Assembly (NCBI GenBank): GCA_046330135.1
Contig: JAXLTI010000003.1
Coordinates: 1,128,221-1,192,220 of the forward strand
Source: a bacterium
GTDB taxonomy: Bacteria; ARS69
Length of the DNA stretch: 64,000 bases
Direction: 5' to 3'
Under the pieces are notes generated by a model that saw nothing but the letters and a program-made list of their open reading frames with translations, was not told the origin of the DNA and did no database searches. How positions within the stretch are numbered: the stretch's first letter is position 1; each line of letters starts with the position of its first letter. The translations under genes were made by a program, and so were the position numbers. Shown here one piece after another: positions 13,195 to 59,841 of this stretch.

Positions 13195-13345
13195 CCGACT
13201 CGCGCATTGCACGTGATGCCCGCGTCGTCGGCTCGGCGGCGCGTGCTTCCGCATCGGACGGTCGCCTCCGCCGTCCGGGCTCCGGCGCCCTCCCGCTCCG
13301 GCGGCTCCGCCATCCTGGCTGCGCCGCCTCCGCGAAGCCGCTGCG
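13195..13345. repeat. Dispersed intergenic repeat element, copy A (imperfect long inverted repeat)
   Basis: Shares a near-identical core of about 38 nt (GCGTCGTCGGCTCGGCGGCGCGTGCTTCCGCATCGGACGG) with copies at about 57.67 kb and about 54.06 kb. The 5' arm CGGCTCGGCGGCGCGTGCTTCCGC is paired by the 3' arm GCGAAAGCACGCCACCGAGCCGCCG. Confidence 0.5.
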
Positions 13346-13573
13346 AAAGCACGCCACCGAGCCGCCGACGCATACCTCGCCTCGCGCGGTCTGCGCCGGC
13401 GCGGCGAGGGCTCGCGCGACGTCGGGCGCAATCACCGTCTGCAGCGCGTCGCCGACTGCGCCCGTGCGCCAGCGCCGTCCCGGTCGTCGCCTGTCTCACA
13501 ACGGACGCGGCGCGGGCCGGCCCCGAGGCGAGACGGGCGAACCCAAGTACGGCTCCGAGCCGGCCAGGCGAGG

Positions 13574-16446: not shown

Positions 16447-16660
16447 GCGGCGCTTCGCACGCGCTGGGCGACTCGCTTCGTCGGCCGGAGTCACATCCGC
16501 TCAAAGGCGGCTCGCGGAGCCCACCGCTGCGCACTTCGGGACGACGCGTCCCTCGGCAGGGGGCCGCCGCGCCGCTTCGGCCCGTTCCCATTCGGTCGAC
16601 CTGCGCGTATGCTAGATGCCGACATCCCCCCTCATCCGGCCGTTCACCGAGGAGTCCTCC

Positions 16661-19288
16661 ATGGGACCGCTCCACCGAACCGCCCTCCTGGCCACGGTCG
16701 CCGTCGCCGGCGCCGCGGCCGTCTTCTTCGTCCGCCCGGCCCAGTTTCGCGCCGGGTCGTCCGCGGGCCTCCCCGCAGGAGTCCGCCCCGCCGCGGAGAG
16801 CCCCGAGGTGGAAGGCCAGGGTGAGGACCACGCCTGGGAGATGTTCGAGTGGTGGTACGGCCAGCGCGCGTATCCCAACGACCTGATCCCGCAGCAGGGC
16901 TTCTGGAACGCCTGGCAGACGCGCTCGCACATGACGGTGGACGAAGGCACGCTCCGATCGGCCACCTGGACGTCCATCGGACCGGACAACGTGGGCGGAC
17001 GGATGCTCGCCGTGGCGGTGGACCCGTCGAACTCGTCGCGCGTGTGGGCCGGCGCGGCCAGCGGCGGGCTGTGGCTCTCCACGACCGGCGGCGTGGGCGC
17101 GGCGGCCTGGAACCGCGTCGAGACGGGCTTCCCGTCGGTCGCGGTCAGCGGCATCGCCATCGACCCCACGAACCCGCAGAAGATGGTCATCGGGACCGGC
17201 GAGATCGGCCGGTACCAGAACGGGCAGGTCGGCACGCCGGGCGCGCGCAGCAGCTACGGCCTCGGCATCCTCCGCAGCACGGACGGCGGCACCACGTGGC
17301 TCGCCACCGGGTTGACCTGGACCTTCGACCAGCGTCGCGCGGTGCAGGCGGTCCGCATGGACCCGACCGCTCCGGCGAACGTCTGGGCCGCCACCACCGA
17401 AGGAGTCTTCCGCAGCACGGACGGCGGCGACACGTGGGCGCAGAAGAGCGCCGTGGTCATGGCCATGGACGTGATCGTGGATCCCACGAACGGGCAGATC
17501 GCGTACGCGTCGCACGGGCAGCTCGGCGTCCCGGACGACACGCAGGCCGGCATCTGGAAGACCACGAACGCCGGCACCACCTGGACGCGCCTCGCCGGCG
17601 GCCTTCCCACCACGAGCTTCGGCCGCACCGCGCTGGCGATCTCCTCGGATGCCGCACGCATCTGGGCCGGCGTGTCCAACGCGTCCACCCGTCAGATCGT
17701 GGGCCTGTACCGCTCCACGAACGGCGGCACGAACTGGACGAGCGTCAGCTCCACGAACTGGGCCAGCTCGCAGGCGTGGTACGACAACGTCACGGCGGTC
17801 TCGCCCACGAACTCGAACCTCGTGATCTGCGCCGGCCTCGACGTTTACCGCTCCACCACGGGCGGCGGGAGCCTCGCCCACGTCTCCGACTGGTCCGCCG
17901 GCTACGAAGGCGACGTGCCCGCGGGCGGCCCCGAGGGCCCTGCCAACTACGTGCACGCGGACTCGCACTGGTGCACGTTCGATCCGTCGAACCCCGCCAC
18001 GGTGTACATCGCGTGCGACGGCGGCATCTTCAAGTCCACCGACTCCGGCGCCACGTGGACCGGGGCGAACGGCGGCCTGCGCTCGAGCCAGTTCTACGCG
18101 GGCTTCGCGTTCCAGGCGAACGACCACGCGCTCGGCGGGCTGCAGGACAACGGCACGCTGCTCTACCACGGCGCCGATTCGTGGAACAAGACGTTCGGCG
18201 GCGACGGCGGCTGGTGCGCCATCGACCCGACCACGCCGAACACGCTCTACGAGGAGTACGTGTACTTGAACATGTACAAGAGCACCGACAACGGCGCGAG
18301 CTGGAACGAGGCGCACGTGTACAGCAGCTCCACCGCGAACTTCATCGCGCCGTTCGTCCTGTCGCCGTCCAGCCCGAACATCCTCTACGCGGGCGAGCTC
18401 GCCGTGGAGAAGTCCACGGACGGCGGCACGAGCTGGAACTTCGGGGGCGGCGGCTCGAACTGGAACGGCACGCCCGTGGCCACGATCGGCGTGTCGTTCG
18501 GCGATGCGAACCGCGTCGTGGCCGGAACGGGCAGCTCCACGGGCACGATCGAGATCCGCCGGACCACGAGCGGCGGCACCACGTGGACGGCCGCCACCGG
18601 ATACCCGGCGCGCTATCCCACGGACTTCGCGTTCGACCCGTCGAACAACGACGTCGTGTGGGCCACGTTCTCGGGCTACGGCACGGGCCACGTCTTCCGC
18701 TCCACGGACGTCGGGCTCACGTGGGTGAACGTCTCGGGGAACCTCCCGGACCTCCCGCACCAGACCGTCGCCGTGGATCCGCTCAATCCGGCGTGGGCGT
18801 ACGTGGGCACGGACCTCGGCGTCTACCGCACGACGGACGGCGGCACGAGCTGGACGATCTACGACGTGGGCATGCCGCCGGCCATGATCCTCGACCTCGC
18901 GATCTCCTCCGCGCGACGCATGCGCGCGGCCACGTTCGGCAACGGCGTCTGGGAGATCGACCTGCCCACGGCGTCCACGGGCGTCGCGGTGGCGTCGAGC
19001 GAGCGGCGCAGCGCGCTGGCGTTCGAGGCGAGTCGGCCGAATCCGTTCCGGGCTCAGACGTCCATCCGGCTCGCTCTCCCCAAGGAAGCGGACGTGAGCC
19101 TCACCGTCCTGGACGCGGCGGGGCGCCGCGTGCGCACCCTCGTGAACGGCCGTCACGCGGCCGGGTCGCTCGAGGTGGCCTGGGACGGGCGGGATGAAGG
19201 GGGCCGTCGCGTGGCGGCCGGCACCTACTTCGTCCGCGCCACCGGTGCCGGGCAGATCGCCGCCACCAAGGTCACCGTGCTCCAGTAG
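16661..19288 (+). CDS. Secreted BNR/Asp-box repeat protein (sortilin/GH74-like beta-propeller) with T9SS-type C-terminal sorting domain
   Basis: Signal peptide MGPLHRTALLATVAVAGAAA preceded by GAGGAG. About 10 S-x-D-x-G-x-T-W BNR motifs. C-terminus PNPF...LTVLDAAGRRVRTLVNG...AGTYFVRA matches the Por_Secre_tail/FlgD-Ig-like consensus. Confidence 0.75.
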   Translation: MGPLHRTALLATVAVAGAAAVFFVRPAQFRAGSSAGLPAGVRPAAESPEVEGQGEDHAWEMFEWWYGQRAYPNDLIPQQGFWNAWQTRSHMTVDEGTLRSATWTSIGPDNVGGRMLAVAVDPSNSSRVWAGAASGGLWLSTTGGVGAAAWNRVETGFPSVAVSGIAIDPTNPQKMVIGTGEIGRYQNGQVGTPGARSSYGLGILRSTDGGTTWLATGLTWTFDQRRAVQAVRMDPTAPANVWAATTEGVFRSTDGGDTWAQKSAVVMAMDVIVDPTNGQIAYASHGQLGVPDDTQAGIWKTTNAGTTWTRLAGGLPTTSFGRTALAISSDAARIWAGVSNASTRQIVGLYRSTNGGTNWTSVSSTNWASSQAWYDNVTAVSPTNSNLVICAGLDVYRSTTGGGSLAHVSDWSAGYEGDVPAGGPEGPANYVHADSHWCTFDPSNPATVYIACDGGIFKSTDSGATWTGANGGLRSSQFYAGFAFQANDHALGGLQDNGTLLYHGADSWNKTFGGDGGWCAIDPTTPNTLYEEYVYLNMYKSTDNGASWNEAHVYSSSTANFIAPFVLSPSSPNILYAGELAVEKSTDGGTSWNFGGGGSNWNGTPVATIGVSFGDANRVVAGTGSSTGTIEIRRTTSGGTTWTAATGYPARYPTDFAFDPSNNDVVWATFSGYGTGHVFRSTDVGLTWVNVSGNLPDLPHQTVAVDPLNPAWAYVGTDLGVYRTTDGGTSWTIYDVGMPPAMILDLAISSARRMRAATFGNGVWEIDLPTASTGVAVASSERRSALAFEASRPNPFRAQTSIRLALPKEADVSLTVLDAAGRRVRTLVNGRHAAGSLEVAWDGRDEGGRRVAAGTYFVRATGAGQIAATKVTVLQ

Positions 19289-23799: not shown

Positions 23800-25812
23800 G
23801 TGAGAGCGAAGTGGTTAGCGCCGGTTCTGCTCGTGATCGGCTTCGTGATGATGGCGGTTCCCGCCTTCGCGGGGGTGCAGCGCACCACGATGGTGGAGGA
23901 GTTCGGGTATTTGTCTTGACCGTACTGCCCCTGGGCCCGTGCGGCCCTTCGGAACGTCGAGCTCGCCTACCCGAATGACGATCAGCTCGTCCACATCGAC
24001 TGGCATACGTCTGACGCCCTGGCGAACGGCTCGGGCGCAACACGTGCTAACTACTACGGCGTCCCGGCCGTTCCTGACGTGTTCTTCGACGGCGGCAACA
24101 ACGTTCTCGGCGCAGGCGACTCGGTGAGTGCCTACAGCGACTTCAGACCGCGCGTGGACGCCGCCTACGCGGTGCCCTCGAAGCTCATTATCAGCGCTCA
24201 GCTCGACCTGAACTCGAGCACGATGCTAGCCACAGTCACCACGGACGTGACTGTGGCGCCCGGCGAAACGATCGGGACACCGAGCGCCTGTAAGGTCCGC
24301 GCGGCGTTGACCGAGGACAACATCGTCAGGTGCTGCGAGCCCCACACCGGGCACCTGACTTGGAACTACATCTCTCGCGCGATGGTCTTCGAGGTTCCGC
24401 TCACCGACTCGCTTTCGGGCCAGACGCAGCACATCGTGCAGACGTTCCCGATCGACCCGTCGTGGAACATCCGGAACCTGCACGCGGCGGTGTGGGTCCA
24501 GCGCGACACGAACAAGAACATCCTCCAAGCGGCGAACGCCACGGTGGCGTACGAAGCCGTCCTCACGGATCTCGACCCCATCGTGGCGAAGGTCACGTCG
24601 GGGCCGAGCACCTTCGACGACCAGGTCACGAACACGGGCACGTTCAGCGATGACGTGACCCTGACGCTCGACGAGTCCACGCTGCCCTCTGGTTGGAGCG
24701 CGGACATCGTCTACAACTCGACGGTCTACCCGTCGACCGTCACGATCCCGAACATGGCGCATGGCCAGGTGGAGAACGTGAGCGTGCGTGTCACGCCGAA
24801 CGGACCCGGGGAGGGAACCGTTGCGCTCATCGCGGCGCCGTTCCACAACTCCACGTGGACGAACGTGCACCCGTACCACACGTTCTCGCAGACGCCGGCG
24901 ATCCTCTTCGTGGACGACGACAACGGCGCGTCCTTCGAAGGGAAGTACCAGAACGCGATCACCGGCGCCGGCTACTGGTCCGTGACGCAGACGGTGTCCA
25001 CGCAGGGCAATCCGCTCGCGAGCTACATCAACCTCTTCGACGCGCTCGTCTGGAACACCGACTCGCTCCAGACGAACACGATCGGCACGGCGCTCCAGAC
25101 CACGCTCATGAGCTACATGGACGGCGGCGGGAAGCTCTTCCTCGTCAGTCAGGGGATCCTGAACGAGCGCGGGCTCACGCCGATGGTCACGGGCTACCTC
25201 CGCGTGAGCGCGTTCACGCCGGACGTGGGCGGGGCGAGCGCGACCGGCCTCGCGGGGGATCCGATCGGGGACGGTCTGAGCTTCGCGGTCAGCCCGCCGT
25301 TCGTGAACAAGGCCGACGCGGTCACGCCGAACACCGGTGGCGTGGCTTGGTTGGACGCGGGCTTGAACCATGTGGCCGTGCGGTACGACTCGGGCGTCTA
25401 CCGGACGGTCTTCATGACGGCGCCCTTCGAGGGGATCGCGACACCCACGGATGCCACGGTGATGAAGCGGGTGCTCGACTGGCTCGTGCCGAACGACATC
25501 ACCGCGGTTCCCCCGGTGGCGGGACGGGACGAGAGCGGGCTGGCCCTCTGGCAGAACGCTCCCAACCCCTTCAGCGGCACCACCTCGTTGCTCTTCTCGA
25601 TGCCCCAGGCCGGGCACGCTCGCCTCACCGTCTACGACGTCGCGGGCCGCCGGGTGGCGAGCCTCGTCGATCGTCAGCTCGAGGCGGGGGCGCACTCGGT
25701 TGTCTGGGACGGCCGGGACGTGACCGGGGCGCGCACCGCGAGCGGGGTTTACCTGGTCCGCCTCACCGCGAACGGCCGGACGGTCAGCCGGGAGATGGTG
25801 CGGGTGAAGTAA
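23800..25812 (+). CDS. Putative secreted selenoprotein, paralog 1: thioredoxin-like U-P-Y-C module, large uncharacterised domain, T9SS C-terminal domain. In-frame TGA at 23917..23919 read as Sec
   Basis: GTG start 9 nt after AGGAG. Signal peptide VRAKWLAPVLLVIGFVMMAVPAFA|GVQ lies upstream of the TGA. The frame stays open from the TGA into the 577-aa ORF listed in the track. UxxC aligns with CPNC of gene 21603. C-terminus matches the T9SS CTD (NPFSGTTSLLFSMPQAGHARLTVYDVAGRRV...GVYLVRL). Confidence 0.6.
23933..23947 (+). promoter_or_regulatory. Putative bacterial SECIS hairpin, paralog 1
   Basis: GGGCC-CGUGC-GGCCC. Lies 13 nt downstream of the UGA. Loop identical to that of paralog 2. Confidence 0.5.
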
Positions 25813-26059: not shown

Positions 26060-28096
26060 GTGAGAGCAAGGTCCCTCACGAAGGTCCTTTTCCTCCTCCT
26101 CGGCGCCGTGCTCTTCGCCGCGCCCGCTCTGGCGACAGTCCAGCGGACGATGCTCGTCGAAGAGTTCGGCTGGTGGAATTGAACGTACTGCCCCTACGCC
26201 CGTGCGGCGTTGCGGATGACGGAACGGCAGGACTACCCCGACAAGACCCAGCTCGTCCACCTCGACTGGCACTTCAACGACGCGGTGCTCGGTAACCCCA
26301 GCTCGACGGCGCGCGCCCAGTACTACGCCGCGAACTCCGCTCCCGACGTCTGGTTCGACGGCAGCCAGCACGTCGTCGGCGCCGGCGACTCCGTGGGGAC
26401 GTACAACACGTACAAGCCGATCCTCGCGGCGCACTACATCGATCCGTCGCAGCTGCTCGTGTCGGTGACGCTCGATCTGAACTCGATCACGTTGACCGGT
26501 ACGTCCACGGTGAACGTCCAGGTGGCGCCGGGGGAGACCATCAACCTCCCCTCCAACTGCAAGATCCGGTGCGCGCTCTACGAAGACGCGGTGCCCCTGG
26601 GCGGCGGCAGAACGGAGCCGCACACCGGGAACACCACCATGAACTACATCGCCCGGCTGATGATCACCGAGACCACGCTCACGGCGACGAACTCGGGCGA
26701 TACCCAGCAGGTGGTGACGAACTTCAGTATCGATCCGACGTGGAAGATCCAGGATCTGCACGCGGTGGCATTCGTTCAGCGCGATACGAACAAGAAGGTG
26801 CTGCAGGCGGGCTTCTCCCCGGCGCAGTACCAGGTTCTCGTGTCCGATCTCGGTACCCCCGTGGCGCGGGTCAACAGCGGTGCCAAGGACTTCAACTCCC
26901 AGGTCCTGTACCAGGGCACCGTCAACGACGACGTGCTGCTGACGCTCGACAAGTCGGCCCTGCCCGTCGGATGGGACGCTGCGATCGTGTGGAACGGCAA
27001 CTCGTACCCCACGACGCTCACGATCCCGAACATGACGAAGGACCAGCAGGAGGCGATCACGGTCCGCGTGACTCCGTCGGCCCCGGGGATGGGGACGGTG
27101 GGATTCTCCGTGGAGCCCGTGTCGCTGCCGCCGGCCGCGCAGAATCACAGCTACATCACGTTCTACCAGCGGCCGAAGCTGCTCTTCGTGGACGACGACA
27201 ACGGCGCCCACCTGGAGACGTACTACCAGAATGCGCTCGCCAGCGCCGGCTACTTCGCGCTCGGACACGACGTCGCAGCCCTCAACGGAGCCACTCCGCC
27301 GGTGAGCTGGATGTCGAACTTCGACGCCGTCATCTGGAACACGGATTCGCTCCAGGTGCTGACGCTCGGCGGACCGCAGCAGGCTGATCTCATCAGCTAT
27401 CTGGACGGCGGCGGCCGGCTGTTCCTCTGCAGCCAGGGATTCCTGAACGATCGCGGGCTCGTGGCCCTCACCACGAACTACCTCCGGGTGAGCGCGTTCA
27501 CCCGGGACGTAGGTGCTCCGACCGTCACGGGCGTCGCCGGAGACCCGATCGGGGACGGCATGAGCTTCGCCGTCACCCCGCCCTTCACCAACCTGGCGGA
27601 TGCGTTGACGCCGGGCGTGGGGGCGGCGCCGTGGCTGGACTCGGGCGCGAATCACGTCGCCATGCGCTACGACAGCGGCGTCTTCAAGACCGTGCTCCTG
27701 ACCGCGCCGTTCGAGGGCATCGCTGCGCCCAACGACGCGCTGGTCATGCAGCGCGTGCTCCAGTGGCTCGTGCCGGATACGGCCACGGATGCTCCGGTGA
27801 TCGGTGGGCAGGTGGCGGGCGGTCTGGCGTTGTTCCAGAACGTCCCGAACCCGTTCAGCGGCACCACGTCGCTGCGCTTCTCGCTGCCGGCGGCCGGCCA
27901 CGTGGGCCTGGCCATCTACGACGTCGCGGGTCGCCGCGTGGCGAGCCTCGTCGATCGCAGGCTGGAAGCGGGCACGCACTCGTTCGATTGGGACGGGCGT
28001 GACGTCACGGGCGCGCGGGTCGCGAGCGGCGTGTACCTCGTCCGTCTCAAGGCCGGCAACGAAACCGTCAGCCGCGAGATGGTGCGGGTGCACTAG
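26060..28096 (+). CDS. Putative secreted selenoprotein, paralog 2: U-T-Y-C module, large uncharacterised domain, T9SS C-terminal domain. In-frame TGA at 26180..26182 read as Sec
   Basis: GTG start after AGGAG. Signal peptide VRARSLTKVLFLLLGAVLFAAPALA|TVQ is listed in the track as a separate 79-aa ORF ending at the TGA. That ORF is in frame with the 628-aa ORF beginning 9 codons later. T9SS CTD at the C-terminus. Confidence 0.6.
26196..26210 (+). promoter_or_regulatory. Putative bacterial SECIS hairpin, paralog 2
   Basis: ACGCC-CGUGC-GGCGU. Lies 13 nt downstream of the UGA. Two stem base pairs covary relative to paralog 1 (G-C to A-U, G-C to C-G). Confidence 0.5.
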
Positions 28097-28294: not shown

Positions 28295-29014
28295 GTGCGA
28301 ACCGTCATCGTCGTCCCGACCTACAACGAAGCGCCGAATCTGGAGCGGCTCGTGGCGGAGCTGCGCCGCATCGTCCCCGAAGCCGACATCCTGGTGGTGG
28401 ACGACCGCTCGCCGGACGGCACGGGCGAGATCGCGGACCGCCTCGCGGCCGCGGACCCGCACGTGTCCGTGGTCCACCGCGCCCCGCCCAAGGGGAGAGG
28501 CCTCGCCGGCCGGGACGGCTTCCTCGCGGCGCTCGCGTCCCGCGCCGACGCGATCCTCGAGATGGACGCGGACTTCTCGCACGATCCCGCCCTGGTGCCC
28601 CGCTTCCTTTCGGAGCTGAGCCGCGGCGCCGACATGGTCCTCGCGTCCCGCTTCGTCCGCGGCGGCTCGGACACGGATCGCCCGTGGCTCCGCCGGCTCA
28701 TCACGGTGCTGGCGAACTCCTACATCCGCCTCGTGCTCGGCGTCCCCATCGGCGACTGCAACTCCGGGTATCGCGGCTTCACGCGCGCGACGCTCGAGGC
28801 GATCCGGCCCGCCACGCTGACCAGCACGGGGCCCTCGATCGTCCAGGAGGTCCTCTTCCGCGCGCACCGGGCGGGCGCTAGGATCGTCGAGATCCCGCTC
28901 GAGTTCGTCGATCGGCGCGAGGGCGACTCGAAGCTGTCGCTGGGGCTCCTCCTGGACGGGTACGTGATGATCCTCCGGCTGCGCATCCGCGAGCTCCTGG
29001 GGAAGCAGCCATGA
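28295..29014 (+). CDS. GT2 polyprenyl-phosphate glycosyltransferase (Dpm1/Ppm1-like)
   Basis: GTG after GAGGAG. Sequence VIVVPTYNEAPNLERL...LVVDDRSPDGT and DxD region, typical of GT2 Dpm1-like enzymes. Confidence 0.8.
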   Translation: MRTVIVVPTYNEAPNLERLVAELRRIVPEADILVVDDRSPDGTGEIADRLAAADPHVSVVHRAPPKGRGLAGRDGFLAALASRADAILEMDADFSHDPALVPRFLSELSRGADMVLASRFVRGGSDTDRPWLRRLITVLANSYIRLVLGVPIGDCNSGYRGFTRATLEAIRPATLTSTGPSIVQEVLFRAHRAGARIVEIPLEFVDRREGDSKLSLGLLLDGYVMILRLRIRELLGKQP

Positions 29015-31380
29015 CCACGCCGGATCCGGCTCCCGGGGAAGCCGCCGTGACCACGCCGGATCCGCCGAATGGACGAGCCGCCGTGACTGCGCCCGATCCC
29101 CTGGCCGCGAACGTTCCCCTGCGGCGGCTGACGATCGCCGCGGTGCTCCTGGCGGCGCTCTTCCTCACGTGCTTCCAGGTCACGGACACGGACCTCGGCG
29201 GGCACGTCACGGTCGGCCGGGAGATCCTGAAGAGCCACCAGATCCCGAGCACGAACTTCTTCAGCCACACGCATCCGGACTATCCCTATCCGGTGCACCA
29301 GTGGCTCGGGCAGGTGACGCTCTTCCTCGTGCATCACTTCGCGGGCGCCACGGGTCTCATCCTGCTGCGGATGCTCGTCGTCTTCCTCGGCGCGGTGCTG
29401 CTCTTCCGCAACGCGCGACGCGAGGGCGCGCCCATCGTGGTCGCCAGCGCGATCGTCCTCGTGCTCCTCGTCTGCGCGCGCCCGCGCTTCTTCGAGCGGC
29501 CCTTCCTGGTCACGATCGTGTTCCTGCCGCTCCTGCACGGCTACGTGGCCGATCTGCGGGAAGGGAAGACCCGACGCCTCTGGCCGATCATCCCGCTCAT
29601 GACGATCTGGGCGCACGTCCACTCGGGCGTCCTCTTCGGCGCGCTGTACCTCGCGGCCTCCGTGGTGGGGGAGGGCGCGAAGATCCTGCTCGCGCGACGC
29701 CCGGGCCGCCACGCCGTGCCGGGCTCGCACGTGTTCCCGGGGACGCCGCTGGACGGCTGGAACTACCGGCGGCTGGCGCTCTTCTCCGCGGTGGCGATCG
29801 CATTGCCCATCGCTACGGTCGCGCTGATCAACCCGAGCGGCGTGAAGCCGCTGGCCTTGCCGTTCCTCTTCTATCAGAACCAGGCGTTCCGCCAGATGAT
29901 CCTCGAGTACCACTCCGTGCGGCTGTCCGTGGATTGGCCGTGGGATCTCGTGGCGGGCGCGGCGCTGCTCGGCGTGCTGCTGCGCCCGCGTCGCGTGGAC
30001 CTCACGCAGCTTCTCGTGTCGCTCGGCTTCGGGATCCTCGCGTACCAGGCGGTGCGGGAGATCATCACGTTCGCCGCGGCGTCGGCGCCGCTCCTCGGGC
30101 GCACGTGGGGCGCGCTCGCGGACGATCTCTTCGCGCGCATCGGTCGCGGGCGTCGTGGGCAGGCGTCGAGCGAGGGCGGCGGCAGCGCGCGCGCGAACGT
30201 GGCCGAGGCGATCGTGGCCTGGGCGGTCGTCGCCGCGGCCGCGTTCGTCTCCTTCCGCGCCACGCAGGACTGGATGTTCCCGTTCGGGTTCGGGATGGAT
30301 CCGAAGCACTTCCCCGAGCGCGCGGTGGACTTCCTCTGGGCGGAGAACATCCAGGGTCCGATCTTCAACACCGACGTCTTCTCGTCCTGCATCCTGCTGC
30401 GCGGCAAGGGGCGGCGCTTCCCGGTCTTCGTGGACGCGCGGCTCGAGGCGTATCCGGAGAGCTTCTGGCGCGACGAGTACTACCGCGTGCTCGAAGCGGC
30501 GCCCGGATGGGAGGACGTGCTCCGCCGCTACGACGTCCAGTGCGCGATCCTCCGCCGCGCCGGCGGGGAGGTGGACGACCGGATCGGCGACGTCCTCTGG
30601 AAGGACCCCGGCTGGGGCTGCGTCTACTGGGACGACGCCATGATGATCTTCGTGCGTCGGGGTGGGCGGGCGCCGCGCAACGACGAGGTCCTCCGGTCCT
30701 GGGCGTTCACGGCCTTCTCGCCGCGTCGCCCGGAGGACGTGCGCGCGCTGCGCGGGGCGGCCCTGGACCGTGCCGTCGCGGAGCTCACGCGCCTCACCGG
30801 ATGGGAGGAGACCTCGTTCCTCCCGCGCTGGGCGCTCGCGGCCGCCTGGACGAGGCAGGGCAAGGGCGAGGACGCCGCGGACCTCTTCGCCCGCCTCGCC
30901 GCGCTCCGGGACGCGAAGCACAACGCGGCGTTCGTCCGGAGCCGTGCGGAAGCCGAGCTGGTGGCGGGGCGCCGGAGCCGGTGGGCGGAGCTTCTGACGG
31001 AGGCCAAGGCGGACCCGAACACGGCGGCGTCGCTCTTCGACGGGGCCGCCCTCCTGGCCGCGGCCGGCAAGTCCGACTCGTCCATCGCGATGTACGGCGA
31101 GGTGCTGCGCGCGGACCCGTCGAACGCGGATGCGTCGAACAACCTCGCGCTGCTCCTCGGTCGCGCGGGCCGGACCAAGGAAGGGCTCCAGCGCGTGAAC
31201 GAGGCGTTGCGCCGCTCCCCGAACGACGCCTACTACGTGGCCACGCGCGCCGAGATCCTCTCCCTGGACGGGGACCGCGCCGGCGCCCTGGCCGAGTTCC
31301 GGAAGTCCCTCGATCTCCTCCCGGCCGACGACAAGGCGGCGCGCGAGGAGGTCATGCACTGGATCCTCAAGCTGGAGTGA
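29011..31380 (+). CDS. Multi-pass membrane protein with C-terminal TPR repeats (GT-C / TMTC-like putative glycosyltransferase)
   Basis: Start overlaps the GT2 stop. About 10 predicted TM helices in the N-terminal 400 aa. C-terminal TPR-like helical repeats. 33-nt in-frame direct repeat at the N-terminus (AAVTTPDPPNGR / AAVTAPDP). Confidence 0.55.
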   Translation: MTTPDPAPGEAAVTTPDPPNGRAAVTAPDPLAANVPLRRLTIAAVLLAALFLTCFQVTDTDLGGHVTVGREILKSHQIPSTNFFSHTHPDYPYPVHQWLGQVTLFLVHHFAGATGLILLRMLVVFLGAVLLFRNARREGAPIVVASAIVLVLLVCARPRFFERPFLVTIVFLPLLHGYVADLREGKTRRLWPIIPLMTIWAHVHSGVLFGALYLAASVVGEGAKILLARRPGRHAVPGSHVFPGTPLDGWNYRRLALFSAVAIALPIATVALINPSGVKPLALPFLFYQNQAFRQMILEYHSVRLSVDWPWDLVAGAALLGVLLRPRRVDLTQLLVSLGFGILAYQAVREIITFAAASAPLLGRTWGALADDLFARIGRGRRGQASSEGGGSARANVAEAIVAWAVVAAAAFVSFRATQDWMFPFGFGMDPKHFPERAVDFLWAENIQGPIFNTDVFSSCILLRGKGRRFPVFVDARLEAYPESFWRDEYYRVLEAAPGWEDVLRRYDVQCAILRRAGGEVDDRIGDVLWKDPGWGCVYWDDAMMIFVRRGGRAPRNDEVLRSWAFTAFSPRRPEDVRALRGAALDRAVAELTRLTGWEETSFLPRWALAAAWTRQGKGEDAADLFARLAALRDAKHNAAFVRSRAEAELVAGRRSRWAELLTEAKADPNTAASLFDGAALLAAAGKSDSSIAMYGEVLRADPSNADASNNLALLLGRAGRTKEGLQRVNEALRRSPNDAYYVATRAEILSLDGDRAGALAEFRKSLDLLPADDKAAREEVMHWILKLE

Positions 31381-31562: not shown

Positions 31563-34235
31563 GTGGCGGAGCCCAAGATCCACGAGCTCCCGAAGGCGTA
31601 CGAGCCGGCGGCCGTCGAGGAGCGGATCTACGGCTTCTGGGAGGCCGGCGGGCACTTCCACGCGGACCCGCGCTCGTCGAAGCCCCCGTTCACGATCATG
31701 ATCCCGCCGCCCAACGTGACCGGCGTCCTCCACATGGGGCACGCCTTGAACAACACGTTGCAGGACATCGTGATCCGGCACCGTCGCATGGCCGGGTTCG
31801 AGGCGCTCTGGCTGCCCGGCACCGATCACGCCGGCATCGCCACGCAGGCCGTGGTGGAGAAGCAGCTCTACAAGGAGTTCGGGCTCACGCGCGAATCGAT
31901 GGGCCGCGAGGCGTTCGTCGGCGAGATCTGGAAATGGCGGGAGCGGCACGGGGACGCCATCCTCCGTCAGCTTCGCCGCCTCGGCTGCTCGTGCGACTGG
32001 TCGCGGACGAAGTTCACCCTCGACGACGACATGAGCCGCGCGGTGGCCACCGCCTTCGTGCGCCTCTGGGAGCGCGGGCTCGTCTACCGCGGCGCGCGGC
32101 TCGTGAACTGGGATTGCACGCTGCGCACCGCCGTCTCCGACGACGAGATCGAGTACGTGCCGCGGCGCGGCAAGCTCTGGTACGTCCGCTATCCGGTGCG
32201 CGGGGAGGAAGGTCGCTTCATCACCGTGGCCACCACGCGGCCGGAGACCATGCTCGGCGACACGGGCGTGGCGGTGCATCCGGGCGACGAGCGCTGGAGC
32301 AGCTTCATCGGCAAGACCGTGTTGCTGCCGCTGCTGGATCGGCCCATTCCCGTGGTGGCGGACGAGACGGTGGAGACCGCGTTCGGCACGGGCGCGGTGA
32401 AGGTGACGCCGGGCCACGATCCCGCGGACTACGACCGCGGGCAGCGCTTCGGCCTGCCCATCGTGAGCCTGTTCGAGCCGGACGGGACGCTCGGCGAGGC
32501 GGCGGGCCCGTATCGCGGGCAAACGCGCGAGGGCGCGCGCGAGCGGATCGTGGCGGACCTCGAGGCGCGCGGGCTCCTGGAGAAGGTGGAGGAGATCGAG
32601 CACAACGTGGCCGTGTCGGACCGCTCGCGGGACACGATCGAGCCGTTGATCTCGGAGCAGTGGTTCGTGCGCATGAAGGAGATCGCCGGGCCCGCCATCG
32701 AGGCGGTGAAGTCCGGCCGGCTCAAGATCGTCCCGGAGCGCTGGGCGAAGGTGTACCTGGACTGGCTCGAGAACGTGCGGGACTGGTGCATCTCGCGGCA
32801 GCTCTGGTGGGGCCACCGCATCCCCGTGTGGTACGACGAGGACGGAGTGCCCGCCGCCTCCGCGCTGCCGCTCGCGCGCGGCTCGCCGCACCCGAAGACC
32901 GGCAAGCGCATCGTGCGCCAGGACGACGACGTGCTGGACACGTGGGCGTCCAGCTGGCTGTGGCCCTTCGCCACGCTCGGCTGGCCGGAGCGCACCGCGG
33001 ATCTCGCGCGCTTCTATCCCACGCAGTTCCTGAGCACCGCGCGGGAGATCATCTACCTGTGGGTGGCGCGCATGGTGATCGCGGGCTACGAGCTGCTGGA
33101 CTTCCTCCCGGAGGACCAGCGCTGCCCGTTCTCCACTTGTTACATTCACGCCACGGTGCTCGACACGCAGGGCCGGCGGATGTCGAAGAGCCTGGGCAAC
33201 GGCATCGACCCGATCGAGATGATCGACAAGTACGGCGCGGACGCGGTGCGCTACTCGCTCGTGACGCTCACCCGCGAGGGCCAGGACGTGAAGCTGGCGG
33301 AGAACCGCTTCGAGCTGGGCCAGCGCTTCTGCAACAAGATCTGGAACGCGGTGCGCTTCGCCCTCGCCAACCTGGACGGCGTGCCGCAGGGGCCGCTCGG
33401 CGAGACGCTCGAGGATCGCTGGATCCTCTCGCGCACGCGGCGCGCGATCCGCGAGGTGGAGTCGTCGCTCACGGAGTACCGCTTCCACGACGGCGCCGCG
33501 GAGCTGTACCGCTTCTTCTGGAACGACCTGTGCGACTGGTACCTCGAGGTCGCGAAGCGCCGGCTGGCGCCCGGCGCGAGCGAGTCGGATCGGGAGGCGG
33601 CGCGCGCCACGCTGGCGCGGGTCCTCTCCGCCACGATCCGCATGCTGCATCCGTATCTTCCGTTCGTGACCGAGGAGCTGTGGAGCTACCTGCCGGGGAC
33701 GGACGGCGCGCTCGTGGTGGCCCCGTGGCCGGACGCGGACGCGTTCCGCGCGGACGAGGCCGCGGAGGCGGACTTCGAGCGGCTGCGCGAGACGGTCTCG
33801 GCGGTGCGGAACCTGCGCAGCTCCATGAACGTGCCGCCGAGCGCCACGGTGCGCCTGCTGGTGCACTCGGACGACGCGGACCTCGCGCGCGTGCTCGCCG
33901 AGACGTCGGAGCTGGCCACGGCGCTCGCGCGGCTGTCGGAGGTGACGGTGGGCCCGAGCGTCGCGAAGCCGAAGAGCGCGGCCAGCGCGGTGGTGCGCGG
34001 GGGAACGGTCTGGGTGCCGCTCGAGGGCGTCATCGACCTCGACGTCGAGCGCGAGAGGCTGCGCCGCGAGAACGAGCGCCTGGAGAACCTGGTCTCGGGC
34101 GCCACGCGGAAGCTCGGCAACGCGGACTTCGTGTCCCGCGCGAAGCCCGAGATCGTGGACCGCGAGCGGGAGAAGCTCGCGAGCCTGAAGACCGACCTGG
34201 ACCGCGTAACCGCCGCGCTCGCGGACCTGGAGTAG
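31563..34235 (+). CDS. valS: Valyl-tRNA synthetase
   Basis: GTG after GGAGG. HIGH motif (HMGHALN). KMSKS motif (RMSKSLGN). C-terminal coiled coil. Confidence 0.9.
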   Translation: MAEPKIHELPKAYEPAAVEERIYGFWEAGGHFHADPRSSKPPFTIMIPPPNVTGVLHMGHALNNTLQDIVIRHRRMAGFEALWLPGTDHAGIATQAVVEKQLYKEFGLTRESMGREAFVGEIWKWRERHGDAILRQLRRLGCSCDWSRTKFTLDDDMSRAVATAFVRLWERGLVYRGARLVNWDCTLRTAVSDDEIEYVPRRGKLWYVRYPVRGEEGRFITVATTRPETMLGDTGVAVHPGDERWSSFIGKTVLLPLLDRPIPVVADETVETAFGTGAVKVTPGHDPADYDRGQRFGLPIVSLFEPDGTLGEAAGPYRGQTREGARERIVADLEARGLLEKVEEIEHNVAVSDRSRDTIEPLISEQWFVRMKEIAGPAIEAVKSGRLKIVPERWAKVYLDWLENVRDWCISRQLWWGHRIPVWYDEDGVPAASALPLARGSPHPKTGKRIVRQDDDVLDTWASSWLWPFATLGWPERTADLARFYPTQFLSTAREIIYLWVARMVIAGYELLDFLPEDQRCPFSTCYIHATVLDTQGRRMSKSLGNGIDPIEMIDKYGADAVRYSLVTLTREGQDVKLAENRFELGQRFCNKIWNAVRFALANLDGVPQGPLGETLEDRWILSRTRRAIREVESSLTEYRFHDGAAELYRFFWNDLCDWYLEVAKRRLAPGASESDREAARATLARVLSATIRMLHPYLPFVTEELWSYLPGTDGALVVAPWPDADAFRADEAAEADFERLRETVSAVRNLRSSMNVPPSATVRLLVHSDDADLARVLAETSELATALARLSEVTVGPSVAKPKSAASAVVRGGTVWVPLEGVIDLDVERERLRRENERLENLVSGATRKLGNADFVSRAKPEIVDREREKLASLKTDLDRVTAALADLE

Positions 34236-53982: not shown

Positions 53983-54039
53983 CGCATCCGCCCAGCCCCG
54001 GCTTCCCGGCGGCTTCTCCGCTTCGCGCGCGTGGGGGTT

Positions 54040-54190
54040 CGCCCCGCTCCGGCCTCCCGAACGGCTTCTCCGCATCGGACGGGAGCCCTCCGCCGTCCCG
54101 GCTCCGGTCTCCCTCGGCTCTCCGTCGCCTCCGCCCTCCGTGGCTGCGGCTCCTCCGAGACGCCGCTGCGGAGAAGCCGTTCGGGAACCC
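54040..54190. repeat. Dispersed intergenic repeat element, copy C (bounded by an 18-bp inverted repeat)
   Basis: CCCGAACGGCTTCTCCGC ... GCGGAGAAGCCGTTCGGG flank a core (CTCCGCATCGGACGGGAGCCCTCCGCCGTCCCGGCTCCGG) homologous to copy A. Confidence 0.45.
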
Positions 54191-54469
54191 GGATCGTATC
54201 CCCAGCTCGCGCGACGTCCGGGTCGCCGAGTTCGCGCGGCCCGGGCGGCTCACCCGACTCCCCCGAGCTCCCGCGCTCGCGCCGTCCCGTCTCTGCGCGC
54301 ACGCCCCCCGGCGTGCCGCGTGTTGGGATAGCGAGGCAAGCCCGCCGAGCTCGACCCTTCCTCCGAGGCGGCGTCACGAGCCGCGCTCGGCCATGGATGG
54401 CCGAGCGCCTGCCGAGTGCCGAGGCCAAGGCCGGGGCATGGATGCCCCGGCCGCGCCGTCCGCAGCGGA

Positions 54470-54580
54470 GGAAGGGTCGAGCTCGGCGGGCGGGCGAACG
54501 CCCCTTGCGCGAACACCCCGAGCTCGGCGGCGGGCGAACGCCCCCTGCGCGAACCCGTCGACTCGGCGGGCGGGCGTGTG
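54470..54580. repeat. About 40-nt tandem direct repeat, 2.5 copies
   Basis: GCTCGGCGGGCGGGCGAACGCCCCTTGCGCGAACACCCCGA repeated, with a few substitutions. Lies in the convergent intergenic region between kup and the PDZ gene. Confidence 0.5.
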
Positions 54581-55054
54581 CTACTTCGCGGCGGCGACCT
54601 CGGCGGAGACGTGCTCGAGCATGTGCTGGCCGATGTAGCGGGCCAGAACGTCGGCGGGCATGGCGGCGAGCGTGATGGTCACGTCGCGCTTCTCGCCCTC
54701 GCGGCGCATGGTCCAGGTCACGGACTGCCCCGGCTTGGACGCGGCGCGAGCGGAGGAGAGCTTCTCCTGGTTGCCTTCCTGCAGCGGGATGCCGTTGATC
54801 GCCACGAGGATGTCGCCCGGCTGGATGCCGGCCTTCTGGGCGGGGCTTCCGTCGATGATCTTGACCACGGTCAGCGGTCCGTACTTGGCGTCGTCCCCCT
54901 GGAGCTCCACACCCACCCAGCCGGAGTCCTTCATCTTGGTCGCCATGTAGTCCAAGCACTCCTGGGTGGAGCGCGTGCACTTCGCTCCGGAGCCGGCCCA
55001 CGCGCTCGTCGCCACGAGCAGCGCGACCGCCGCGCCGGACAGGAATCGACTCAT
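54581..55054 (-). CDS. Periplasmic PDZ-domain protein
   Basis: Signal peptide. PDZ domain (GVELQGDDAKYGPLTVVKIIDGSPAQKAGIQPGDILVAINGIPL). Confidence 0.65.
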   Translation of the reverse strand: MSRFLSGAAVALLVATSAWAGSGAKCTRSTQECLDYMATKMKDSGWVGVELQGDDAKYGPLTVVKIIDGSPAQKAGIQPGDILVAINGIPLQEGNQEKLSSARAASKPGQSVTWTMRREGEKRDVTITLAAMPADVLARYIGQHMLEHVSAEVAAAK

Positions 55055-55335
55055 CGGGATCTCCTTTCAGGCGTCCGAGCCGCCCGCCGCCTCGCGGCGC
55101 CGCCCGGCTTCGTACGAGGTCGGCAGGCGCGTGGAGGCTTCGCCCCGGCCCGGAGACGTCGTCGGCCTCCGCTCTCCAGCCGAAGGGCTACCGGTGCAAT
55201 CTAGGCGAAAAAACCCTCGCGAGTCGTCCGCTCCACCGTAAACGTTTGTCCCAGTTGTCAACGTCGTGTAAAGGCGTTCCTCGCCGACCCGCCCGCCGCG
55301 ACCCCGCGCCCATCCCGGGCTAGAATGAGCCCGAC

Positions 55336-56970: not shown

Positions 56971-56974
56971 CGCG

Positions 56975-57655: not shown

Positions 57656-57659
57656 CAGT

Positions 57660-58046
57660 TCCTGCACGCGATGAGCGCGTCGTCGGCTCGGCGGCGCGTG
57701 CTTCCGCATCGAACGGGCGCCCTACGGCGTCCAGCCTCCGGACGCCGCGTGTCAGCCGTCTCGCGACGGGTCCCGGAGCGACTCCGCGCCCGCAGGTCTC
57801 GACCGCCACGACCCGGCATCAGTCTCGCCTCGGGGCCGGCCTCTTCGACGCGGCTTCGCGGAGTCGCCGGAGCCACGGATGGCGGAGGCGACGGAGCGGG
57901 AGGGCGCTGCGGCCAGACGGCTGACCCGTCCGAGGCGAAGAGGCCGGCCCCGAGGCGAGACGGGCGACCCCCGACGCGGCTCCGAGGCGAGACGGGCGAC
58001 CCCCGACCCGGCTCCGAGCGCGTGGCCTCGAGGCGAGACGGACCAG
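57660..58046. repeat. Dispersed intergenic repeat element, copy B, plus about 33-nt tandem repeats at its 3' end
   Basis: 5' core GCGTCGTCGGCTCGGCGGCGCGTGCTTCCGCATCGAACGG is identical to copy A. The 3' end holds 2.5 copies of CCGAGGCGAGACGGGCGACCCCCGAC(G/C)CGGCT, a motif also present once at the 3' end of copy A. Confidence 0.5.
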
Positions 58047-58047
58047 C

Positions 58048-59841
58048 CTACGGGTGCAGCGGCCAGAGGACGGGGATGAGGAGGCTGCCGACGATCCAGA
58101 AGAGGATCGCGAGGGGGAGGCCGGCGCGCACGAAGTCCATGAAGCGGTAGCCGCCCGCGCCGTAGACCATCAGGTTCGTCTGGTAGCCGACCGGCGTGGC
58201 GAACGCCATCGACGATCCGAACATGATCGAGAGGAGGAGCGGCCAGGGGCTCACGCCGAGGTGCGTCGCCGTGGCCAGCGCGATCGGCGAGAGGAGGACC
58301 GCGCAGGCCGCGTTCGAGATGAACGACGTGAGGATCGTAGCGCCGGCGAACATCACGGGCACGACGGCGGCGGGGCCCAGGGCGGCGGCGGCGTGACCGA
58401 TGCCGGCCGCGATCATGTCATCCACGCCGGACTTCTCGATCGCGGCGCCGAGCGGGAACATCCCGCCGAGCAGGAAGATCACCATCCAGTCGATCGACTC
58501 GTGCGCCTCCTTCACGTGGAGGCAGCCGGTCAGGACCATCGCGAGCGATCCGAGGAGCGCGGCGGGGAGGATCGGCAGCAGCCCGCTCCCGGACGAGACG
58601 ATGACGAGTCCCATGATCACCGCGGCCGCGACGGCGTGACCGCGGCGCACCTGCGGAACGGACACCTCGCGCAGCACGATGAAGTCCGGATGCTCGGCGT
58701 AGCCCTCGATCGCGTCGCGCCGTCCCTGCAGGAGCAGCGTATCGCCCGCCTCGAGCGGCGTGTCCACGATCCCCGACGTGAGCGTCTTGCCGTGCTTCCG
58801 CAGCGCGAGGACGAAGACCCCGTAGCGACGCCGGAAGTCCGCGTCGCGGATCGAGCTGCCGATCAGCTCGGACCCCGGTGGCACGAGCGCTTCGGAGATG
58901 GCGGTGGCCTCCGACGCGAGGTCGCGGTCGGCGAAGCGACGCTCGCCCGCGGGCGTCAGCCCCAGCTCCTTGAGGCGGAGGATCTCGTGGGCGTCGCCGC
59001 GCACCAGGAGGCGATCCTCGGGGAGCAGGCGGGTGTCGCGAATTCCGAACCAGCGCTCCTCGTCCCCGCGCGCGATCTGCAGGACGTCGATTCCGTAGCG
59101 CTCGCGCAGGCGCGTCTCGAGCGGCGACTGGCCGATCAGCGGCGATCCCGGACGCACGACGAGCGTCGAGAGGTAGTTCGACAAGCGGTACTTTTGCGTC
59201 AACCCCGTGGTGTCGTCGTTGGCGGGGAGGAGCCGCCGCGCGATCAGCGTCACGTAGGCCAGCGAGAGCAGGAGGAACACGAAACCCAGCGGCGCCGGCG
59301 CGAACAGCGGCAGGGCGCCGAGCCCGTGCGTGGCCGCGAATTGCGCCACGACGACGTTCGTCGACGTGCCGATGACCGTGACGGTACCGCCCGCCATCGC
59401 CATGAACGAGAGCGGCATCATCGTGTGCGAGACGGGGACCTTGCACTCGCGGGACAGGGCGAGCGTGATCGGGAGGAAGACGGCCACCGTGGCCGTGTTG
59501 CTGACGAACGAAGAGACGAGACCCACGGTGAGCATGAGGAGGGCGATGGCGAGCCACGCCTTGCCGCCGGCGAGCCCCACGATCCCGCGCGTGAGGTGGT
59601 TGACCACGCCGGTGCGCGTGAGCCCCGCGCCGAGGATGAACATGGCGGCGATCGTGACGGTCGCGGGGTGGCTGAATCCGGAGAGCGCCTCGGTCACGTC
59701 GGGGAAGGCCGGGCGGAACAGGCCGACGACCATGAGGAGCGACAGCACGACGATCGCGACCACGTCGGCGCGGAGCTTCTCGAGTCCGAAGAGCACCAGC
59801 GTCACGACGACGATGAGGATGACGAGGACGGCGTCGAGCAA
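58048..59841 (-). CDS. DASS/SLC13-family anion transporter with two internal RCK_C (TrkA-C) domains
   Basis: Duplicated transmembrane halves flank two TrkA-C-like cytoplasmic domains. Confidence 0.7.
   Translation of the reverse strand: MLDAVLVILIVVVTLVLFGLEKLRADVVAIVVLSLLMVVGLFRPAFPDVTEALSGFSHPATVTIAAMFILGAGLTRTGVVNHLTRGIVGLAGGKAWLAIALLMLTVGLVSSFVSNTATVAVFLPITLALSRECKVPVSHTMMPLSFMAMAGGTVTVIGTSTNVVVAQFAATHGLGALPLFAPAPLGFVFLLLSLAYVTLIARRLLPANDDTTGLTQKYRLSNYLSTLVVRPGSPLIGQSPLETRLRERYGIDVLQIARGDEERWFGIRDTRLLPEDRLLVRGDAHEILRLKELGLTPAGERRFADRDLASEATAISEALVPPGSELIGSSIRDADFRRRYGVFVLALRKHGKTLTSGIVDTPLEAGDTLLLQGRRDAIEGYAEHPDFIVLREVSVPQVRRGHAVAAAVIMGLVIVSSGSGLLPILPAALLGSLAMVLTGCLHVKEAHESIDWMVIFLLGGMFPLGAAIEKSGVDDMIAAGIGHAAAALGPAAVVPVMFAGATILTSFISNAACAVLLSPIALATATHLGVSPWPLLLSIMFGSSMAFATPVGYQTNLMVYGAGGYRFMDFVRAGLPLAILFWIVGSLLIPVLWPLHP

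Follow-up and report, generated by a model that had tools for sequence, protein, structure and literature searches.

A family of hairpin-forming intergenic repeats with a conserved C-rich core and exchangeable arms between convergent genes of a GC-rich soil bacterium

What occupies the long spacers between convergent genes in an otherwise ordinary stretch of chromosome from a bacterium of the lineage ARS69? The window, by which we mean the whole stretch of DNA that was analysed, comprises 64,000 nt (GenBank assembly GCA_046330135.1, contig JAXLTI010000003.1, positions 1,128,221 to 1,192,220 of the forward strand). It is a housekeeping region with pilMNOQ, aroK, obg, rnd, a GGDEF gene, the nuo operon, kup, a PDZ gene, genes for a histidine kinase and a response regulator, and a CitMHS gene, all called by GC content at third codon positions (GC3) together with Pfam. 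An earlier note on this DNA had described a dispersed repeat in three copies, each behind a gene, and had read it either as an element resembling miniature inverted-repeat transposable elements (MITEs) or repetitive extragenic palindromic (REP) sequences, or as a structured RNA or terminator in the 3' untranslated region (3' UTR). We find that a dispersed repeat is indeed present, with four full copies and a truncated one in the window. All five lie within three long convergent spacers, rnd/GGDEF (383 nt; copy A), kup/PDZ (598 nt; copies B1 and B2) and response regulator/CitMHS (392 nt; copies C-head and C); two further convergent junctions, of 10-12 nt, are empty. The family is non-coding and new in sequence, though the kind of element is well known, and its members are probably lineage-specific hairpin repeats of the mosaic palindromic kind represented by REP sequences and bacterial interspersed mosaic elements (BIMEs), enterobacterial repetitive intergenic consensus (ERIC) sequences or MITEs.

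Since the GC content of the window is 66-77%, chance similarity had to be excluded. The strings on which the repeat was originally recognized are all present at the positions given for them, including the 35-mer GCGTCGTCGGCTCGGCGGCGCGTGCTTCCGCATCG, exact at 13222 and 57677, an 18-bp inverted pair at 54056/54168, and GGCCGGCCCCGAGGCGAGACGGGCGA at 13515 and 57942; not one of 100 dinucleotide shuffles held the 35-mer. An nhmmer profile made from the three regions returned those three copies with E = 3e-25 to 4e-27 and, leaving aside a half copy at 57695-57744 (E = 2.7e-4), nothing else below E = 1e-4, values from which we conclude that the family is real. A covariance model was then built from five full copies and the whole window was scanned with filters off: full copies scored 128-137 bits, the diverged copy B2 was matched at 54351-54480 on the minus strand (35.4 bits, E = 2e-6, model positions 17-139), and the rest of the window stayed at or below 17 bits. 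The base composition, and the fact that all six frames are open across the elements, could be taken to mean that the family is no more than low-complexity similarity arising by chance at 70% GC, or else the remnant of a duplicated coding sequence. We give this next to no credence and regard it as refuted, the chance version by the shuffles, by E values of ~1e-25, by the covariance scores and by independent copies in metagenomes, and the coding version by gene calls based on GC3, which put every copy outside genes, and by the lack of protein homologues for the concatenated six-frame translations of the elements, in a word-indexed search as well as in an exhaustive one that covered 1.84 billion representatives. 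Each of the peptides ASSARRRVLPHRT and MRKHAPPSRRR does occur twice, and the open reading frames (ORFs) over the repeats are spurious, as had been supposed: besides being without homologues and open in all six frames, they are shifted between copies by insertions and deletions.

The unit is ~150 nt long and consists of a C-rich core of 85-100 nt, the shared stretch being ~110 nt, within an outer stem of ~17-30 bp. The shared stretch, ...CTTCYCCGC-ATCGGACGG-n-CCGTCC-GGCTCCGG...CTCCGnCGnCTCCGCCATCC(n)TGGCTnCGnCnnCTCCGCGAnGCCGCTGCG-RAGAAG..., is a plus-strand sequence at 13.2 kb and 54.06 kb and a minus-strand one at 57.8-57.9 kb; in the core the C/G ratio is 1.5-1.6 and G makes up 31%. There are two small hairpins within the core, one being CGGACGG...CCGTCCG and the other, at the centre, having ATCC(N)T as its loop; the core is closed by a short, conserved basal stem, CTTCYCCGC/GCGGRGAAG, which extends into 15-25 bp more that belong to one of several exchangeable arm types. 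These types, which we named Z (copy A), B (copy B1) and Y (copy C), differ wholly in sequence. The 35-mer, previously taken for the shared core, is actually the left arm of outer-stem type Z, and the copy behind kup is without it, having in common only CCGCATCGGACGG and the ~100 nt that follow. The extents have to be redrawn as well (Table 1): at 57.67 kb there is a Z arm, as described, belonging to a truncated head, the full copy of that spacer being on the minus strand further downstream, and copy A does not end at 13345 but runs to ~13372, with a conserved tail to ~13392. Copy B2, the most diverged, retains the basal stem as CCTCCGC/GCGGAGG, the start of the CGGACG hairpin, and GCCATCCATGGC.

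Table 1. Positions of repeat copies, their parts and adjoining motifs in the window (L012 and L019 are metagenome contigs; MFE, minimum free energy)
Feature	Position	Strand	Evidence and remarks
Leader TGCACG(T/C)GATGnnC before Z-armed elements	13208..13221	+	17 nt past the rnd stop; also at 57663 and at L012 1647
Copy A, full	13221..13372	+	covariance model 135.5 bits; nhmmer E = 3.3e-25; MFE z = -5.3
Copy A, Z arms	13222-13252 and 13340-13368		
Copy A, C-rich core	13253-13339		
Tail after right Z arm, (A/G)T(A/G)CCTCGCCTCGCGCGG(T/C)C	13369..13392	+	common to L012a and L019
Y-motif hairpin GGCCGGCCCCGAGGCGAGACGGGCGAACCC...GGCTCCGAGCCGGCC	13507..13563	+	just before the GGDEF gene stop (13574, minus strand); fold
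Copy B1, full	54042..54197	+	covariance model 128 bits; inverted repeat; z = -7.1; starts 59 nt past the kup stop
Copy B1, B-type arms	54045-54078 and 54163-54196		
Copy B2, diverged	54340..54491	-	inverted repeat; z = -11.6
Copy B2, arms	54340-54371 and 54460-54491		32 nt
Copy B2, inner hairpins	54383-54408 and 54429-54452		loop ATCCAT
Tandem array, 40-nt units x2.5	54478..54576	+	Tandem Repeats Finder score 156; fills the gap from B2 to the PDZ gene stop (54581, minus strand); first unit overlaps the B2 arm at its outer end
C-head, truncated	57663..57745	+	92% identity to A over 59 nt; nhmmer E = 2.7e-4
C-head, parts			leader, left Z arm 57677-57707, first ~45 nt of core; remaining core and right arm deleted
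Copy C, full	57819..57966	-	covariance model 128.3 bits; inverted repeat; z = -6.8
Copy C, Y-type arms	57822-57853 and 57930-57961		left arm = L012 1893-1925 over 32 nt
Y-motif tandem units, 32 nt x2.3 (57944-58018) and degenerate unit (58021-58048)	57944..58048	+	tandem-repeat scan; reach the CitMHS gene stop (58048, minus strand)

Some smaller features accompany the elements. The ATCC(N)T loop is kept on different stems, including both hairpins of B2, and on the C-rich strand such hairpins lie at 54383-54408, 54429-54452, 13309-13319 and 57872-57883 of the window, at L012 1946-1957 and at L017 709-720; the window has ten of them where mononucleotide shuffles have about two, and only four of the ten are within elements. 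Tandem units of 32-52 nt, which hold GCGCG(C)AAC..CCCC or GGGCGA(A/C)CCCC and of which the first overlaps the arm, adjoin the gene-proximal arm of several elements (window 54478-54576 and 57944-58048; L023 1490-1620; L037 1300-1384). We rejected GGGCGAMCNCCC as a separate dispersed motif, given that its three matches, against 0.56 expected, are all within the B spacer.

Folding bears out the hairpin character of the unit. The window elements fold far better than their own dinucleotide shuffles, with MFE z-scores of -5.3 to -11.6, and across all copies the scores run from -5 to -12, with -2.5 for the copy on the contig L017. In an eight-copy alignment fitted to the covariance model, 88.6% of the cells hold a standard pair, as against 76.4 +/- 1.4% after shuffling and 35-50% when the partners were slid, and 19 pairs are changed on both sides, compared with 11.2 in the shuffled and 5-8 in the slid alignments, counts that have to be read with two caveats, namely that the alignment was itself fitted to the model and that swaps of arm blocks or palindrome correction by template switching could mimic compensatory changes without selection. 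Such double changes affect 13 of the 18 outer-stem pairs and 4 of the 11 pairs of the central hairpin, where, for example, GGCGGC/GCCGCC in copy A corresponds to GTCGCC/GGCGAC in L012a and C. The alignment holds as many G.U as A.C mismatches (9 vs 9), so that neither strand is marked as a functional RNA. A canonical intrinsic terminator is ruled out, as no U-tract follows any stem: a consensus promoter and terminator scan of 53500-58500 gave no terminator-like sites in the B and C spacers, and direct reading found no T-run after the outer stems, copy A included. A known RNA family is likewise ruled out, there being no match at gathering score anywhere in the window and, for the three spacers, no relevant hit even at E <= 1.

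The orientation of the copies follows a simple rule. The C-rich strand is the sense strand of the nearest gene in A (rnd), B1 (kup), B2 (PDZ), C (CitMHS), C-head (response regulator) and the metagenome copy L012a, that is, in every copy with a known neighbour; L012a and the L017 copy likewise stand behind stop codons. As the C-rich strand is sense to each nearest gene, the long spacers hold head-to-head pairs of alternating orientation, B1(+)/B2(-) and C-head(+)/C(-), with L012a(+)/L012b(-) as a further pair outside the window.

When did these elements enter the spacers? In the search for Kup homologues the best was 80% identical; the Kup on the P0113 contig is 82% identical. The order nuo-kup-PDZ-histidine kinase-response regulator(-CitMHS) is kept in three syntenic contigs, L005, L006 and L007, where Kup is 67-80% identical. 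The kup/PDZ spacer measures 93 nt in L005, 61 nt in L006, 75 nt in L007 and, from gene coordinates alone, 111 nt on the P0113 contig, compared with 598 nt in the window; the response regulator/CitMHS spacer measures 10 nt in L007 and 392 nt in the window, L005 having no comparable junction and L006 and P0113 not having it on the contig. The short kup/PDZ spacers of L006 and L007 each hold a simple GC hairpin, and no core was detected in L005-L007. The short, core-less spacers of the syntenic relatives indicate that the elements were added in this lineage, and the spacer expansion is specific to it. A scan of species-representative genomes with a 22-base core pattern gave four matches, all of them chance, since only the pattern region agrees; a scan of viral contigs gave no matches, and plasmid and phage BLAST gave nothing beyond one irrelevant 44-nt match inside a gene.

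Four further copies of the family were found on three soil-metagenome contigs, behind unrelated genes (two on L012, one each on L017 and L019), and remainders of the element stand at the junctions of insertion sequences (ISs) on L023 and L037. The contig L012 carries a Z-armed plus-strand copy (L012a) 35 nt behind an unrelated gene, followed by a Y-armed minus-strand copy (L012b), and its tail aligns end to end with the C spacer of the window, save for an internal deletion in the window of most of the first core. By this alignment the composite [Z-core(+)]-spacer-[Y-core(-)] is itself a repeated unit. The L017 copy has another arm type and lies between convergent Iron_traffic and esterase genes, while the L019 copy has a B-like core with a Z arm. 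Z arms are therefore paired with the A-type core (A, L012a) as well as with the B-type core (L019), and loci that are otherwise unrelated share arm types: Z is present in A, L012a, L019 and L037, Y in C and L012b, and B in B1 and L023. The family is a mosaic, its arms and cores having been reshuffled among the copies.

The IS junctions give a further view of the element, this time as a target. On L019 an IS with a 374-aa product (PF01548, PF02371) splits the core at ...CCCGGACGGCGGAG/ACCATATAGAGCGACC.... The same IS, with a 100% identical transposase, stands in L023, where the other junction, ...GGTCGCTCTATATCAG/GGCTCCCGTCCGATGCGGAGAAGCCG..., consists of the remaining core and a B-type arm, and an IS with an 86% identical transposase in L037 ends at ...TATATCAG/GGCTCCCGTCCGATGCGGAAGCACGCCGCCGAGCCGACGACGC, the remaining core and a Z arm (IS positions: L019 328-1690; L023 1-1475; L037 1-1275). 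Joining the flanks as GGACGGCGG-AG-GGCTCCCGTCC restores the uninterrupted sequence found in copy B1 of the window, on its minus strand. All three junctions are at GGCGGAG/GGCTCC, in the loop of core hairpin 1, and at least two, probably three, independent insertions have taken place there. The IS has 13-nt subterminal inverted repeats, ATATAGAGCGACC, and its transposase gene is followed on the 3' side by 257 nt of non-coding DNA. By its sequence it can be classed, in all three contigs, as an IS1111-type element, having the DEDD transposase, the layout and the guide-like segments of that type, whose seekRNA matches each of the two target strands over a short length (PMC11187229). In the IS110 family, recombination takes place around a CT core, and REPs are frequent targets (PMC11208160, PMC1525189).

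Three relatives of this IS, with transposases P0130, P0128 and P0124 that are 75-78% identical, have other targets and are not accompanied by further core copies (relatives on L025-L036). Their non-coding regions are nearly identical to that of the core-targeting IS except in two short segments. Segment 1 consists of the right target flank in reverse complement, followed by CT: TACCG-CT for the flank AG/CGGTA in L027, GTTTC-CT for AG/GAAAC in L028, CCCG-CT for AG/CGGG in L032, GAGCC-CT for the core flank AG/GGCTC in L037, and GAGGC-CT for the same core flank, with one mismatch, in L023. Segment 2 is the left flank plus AG, as in GCGG-AG of L023. Because the segments track the targets across five related ISs, guide and target covary, and one IS lineage is specialised on the repeat; from this specialisation it follows that the element should be multi-copy in the hosts of that IS. 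We infer a guide function for the two variable segments, and their changes across the relatives look like natural reprogramming of a seekRNA or bridge RNA. For one related IS (L028 2797 and 4283, L029, L030), the flanks of the target, ...CTGCGGTTTAG/GAAACCGCCGCTCTATCCACCTGAGCTACGAGGGC, resemble, on the reverse strand, a tRNA gene in its 5' half; ARAGORN was negative for the reconstructed site, and we do not retain a tRNA as that target. The likeness of the interrupting IS to IS621, ISPpu9, ISPpu10 and ISPa11 extends to the DEDD transposase, the subterminal inverted repeats, the long 3' non-coding region, the CT/AG core dinucleotide and the two guide-like segments for both target strands (PMC11187229, PMC11208160), and is a likeness of the IS and not of the repeat, the window itself being without that IS.

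The entry of an IS into a hairpin loop raises the question of whether the repeat could itself have arisen in this way. It can be hypothesized that the mobile unit is the core alone, ~125 nt with a 9-11 bp terminal inverted repeat CTTCYCCGC/GCGGRGAAG, that it enters the loops of pre-existing palindromes, and that the variable arms are then target sequence, be it terminator hairpins or Y-type repeats, and no part of the element. The arms would indeed be expected to differ wholly between copies and yet to be complementary within each pair, as they are; core-less Y motifs occur at 13515 and in the tandem units that begin at 57944; relatives have simple GC hairpins at the same junction; and the IS shows that hairpin loops do serve as insertion points. 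Nevertheless, Z, Y and B arms are each found again with a core at unrelated loci, and the leader and tail beyond the arms are conserved too; either core and arms move together, then, or it is repeats that serve as the targets. Neither a Z nor a B palindrome was seen empty, and no enzyme for such a unit is known. We therefore give this route a slim chance.

The main rival explanation is functional: the family would be selected as a 3'-UTR module whose RNA, read from the C-rich strand, terminates or insulates the transcription of convergent genes, and the repetition would follow from the function. The means could be Rho loading on the C-rich core, a hairpin terminator lacking a U-tract, or stabilisation of 3' ends. 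The orientation rule speaks for it, the C-rich strand being sense for A, B1, B2, C, C-head and L012a, as do the head-to-head pairs B1/B2, C-head/C and L012a/b, which provide one element per gene. So do the C/G ratio of the core, the stems kept by compensatory changes, and the ATCC(N)T loop maintained on different stems, B2's two hairpins among them; moreover, with only a simple GC hairpin in the spacers of relatives, the elements sit where terminators are expected. However, the orientation counts are not independent, as head-to-head composites fit the rule however they were inserted, which leaves about four independent cases. The C-rich strand shows no excess of G.U over A.C, no U-tract follows any stem, and Rfam has no match. 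Spacers of 10-111 nt suffice in relatives, and with one copy truncated and others interrupted by ISs the copies are dispensable; with 31% G, the core would also make a poor G-depleted rut site. On balance we consider this explanation unlikely, though still a credible one.

Which known class does the family resemble most? ERIC sequences, or intergenic repeat units (IRUs), and hairpin-forming MITEs (Correia/NEMIS, RUP, BOX) are likewise non-coding imperfect palindromes, ~100-150 nt in length, within intergenic regions that are transcribed; they share a transcript with the upstream gene, and some affect mRNA in a manner that depends on their orientation. The elements described here belong to another host lineage, have no sequence similarity to these, and differ from them in having no common outer terminal inverted repeat, no target-site duplication and no related autonomous IS. 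In size and content they agree with MITEs, being small (50-500 nt), non-coding and multi-copy. A classical MITE is nevertheless ruled out: the inner 9-11 bp stem CTTCYCCGC/GCGGRGAAG is all that is shared by every copy in place of terminal inverted repeats, no direct repeat stands at the ends of A, L012a, B1 and C, whose flanks are the conserved leader and tail, and no autonomous IS with the same ends was found, the sole IS seen having the ends ATATAGAGCGACC and interrupting the element. The likeness to REPs and BIMEs is closer. Like these, the elements are extragenic, GC-rich and palindromic, at the 3' ends of genes or between convergent genes (PMC2817692; PMC1525189; PMC11208160), and they are mosaics of few motif types in alternating orientation, here with the Y motif and tandem units of 32-40 nt (PMC2817692). 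Being a specific target of IS110/IS1111-family ISs is characteristic of REPs as well, without defining them (PMC1525189, PMC11208160, PMC11187229). However, a REP is 20-40 nt long with a conserved palindrome, whereas here the unit is ~150 nt, its central core is conserved and its ~30-nt arms vary, and there is no sequence similarity to REPs; a classical REP is thus ruled out, and membership in the REP class in the strict sense is unproven. The original MITE/REP-like description accordingly holds for a dispersed non-coding palindromic repeat at gene 3' ends and does not extend to strict membership in either class. REP doublets forming hairpins (REPINs) are similar in having two inverted arms around a spacer, folded as one hairpin of ~100-150 nt that is presumably the replicating unit.

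The interpretation that we favour is that of a repeat propagated as DNA. Repeated, folded, placed between convergent genes, absent from relatives and used as a target by ISs, the element is probably, as stated at the outset, a lineage-specific mosaic palindrome of the REP/BIME, ERIC or MITE kind, and the G.U and A.C symmetry, the mosaic arms and the targeting by ISs as for REPs speak for this reading. The elements would have multiplied by means of an enzyme acting in trans and not encoded in the window, and recombination between copies may have produced the mosaics. They would persist between convergent genes since insertions are presumably harmless there. Lying within the 3' UTR of its nearest gene, each element would fold in the transcript into a hairpin of -90 to -130 kcal/mol, which could block read-through and 3' exonucleases.

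Several points weigh against this interpretation. The count stands at 4.5 copies in 64 kb, in addition to copies or remainders on five metagenome contigs, and REPs usually exceed 100 per genome. Pfam scans of the ~36 window proteins found no transposase of any kind, and neither a REP-associated tyrosine transposase (RAYT) nor an autonomous parent element lies in the window; no target-site duplication or shared terminal inverted repeat is present to reveal the means of spread. The conserved centre and variable arms are the reverse of REPINs, in which the arms are conserved and recognised by the enzyme and the spacer varies. The absence of the elements from relatives, at 67-82% protein identity, fits transposition and slower local growth alike and does not separate the two. 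Finally, the fact that the C-rich strand is in the transcript of every known neighbour could point to selection on RNA over neutral accumulation.

This last point leads to a more speculative version, in which the element is a portable, orientation-specific 3'-end module, one copy going to each member of a convergent pair with its C-rich strand in that gene's transcript, whose exchangeable outer clamp would present a conserved C-rich platform and conserved loops to the termination machinery, such as Rho, or to an RNA-binding protein, which would replace the GC hairpins of relatives, and which would double as a landing site for seekRNA-guided ISs. We hold it to be rather unlikely.

Other repeated sequences in the window are of a different nature. 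Adjacent paralogous FlgD_ig/Omp28-like genes at 24079-25812 and 26210-28096 are 71-77% identical in DNA over several hundred bases, with DUF6029 and CarboxypepD_reg proteins encoded near them; taken together, these are a hint of an organism from the FCB group, and the indirect hints as a whole are to that group or to Eisenbacteria. The direct-repeat families D2, D3 and D8 come from a large protein with Sortilin/BNR-like repeats (16616-19288) and are not DNA elements. A 36-nt tandem repeat of 2-2.7 copies (28993-29099) is situated where the genes 28295-29014 and 29011-31380 meet, and the sole tRNA gene of the window, tRNA-Glu(CTC) at 34119-34207 on the minus strand, is in a 768-nt divergent spacer.

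For annotation, the repeat accounts for the three convergent spacers of 380-600 nt in this uncultured, high-GC bacterium where relatives have 10-111 nt, and it flags the long ORFs in these spacers as spurious; the covariance model is a definition of the family that can be used on a complete genome. The IS1111-type elements, with guide-like segments that track their targets across five relatives, would be a natural example of guide and target changing together, and they would extend the link between REPs and the IS110 family beyond the Proteobacteria. If the orientation rule proves true genome-wide, the family would offer a tractable case for the termination of convergent genes in GC-rich bacteria without U-tract terminators. 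The most useful leads, thus, are the covariation of IS guide and target and the possible orientation rule.

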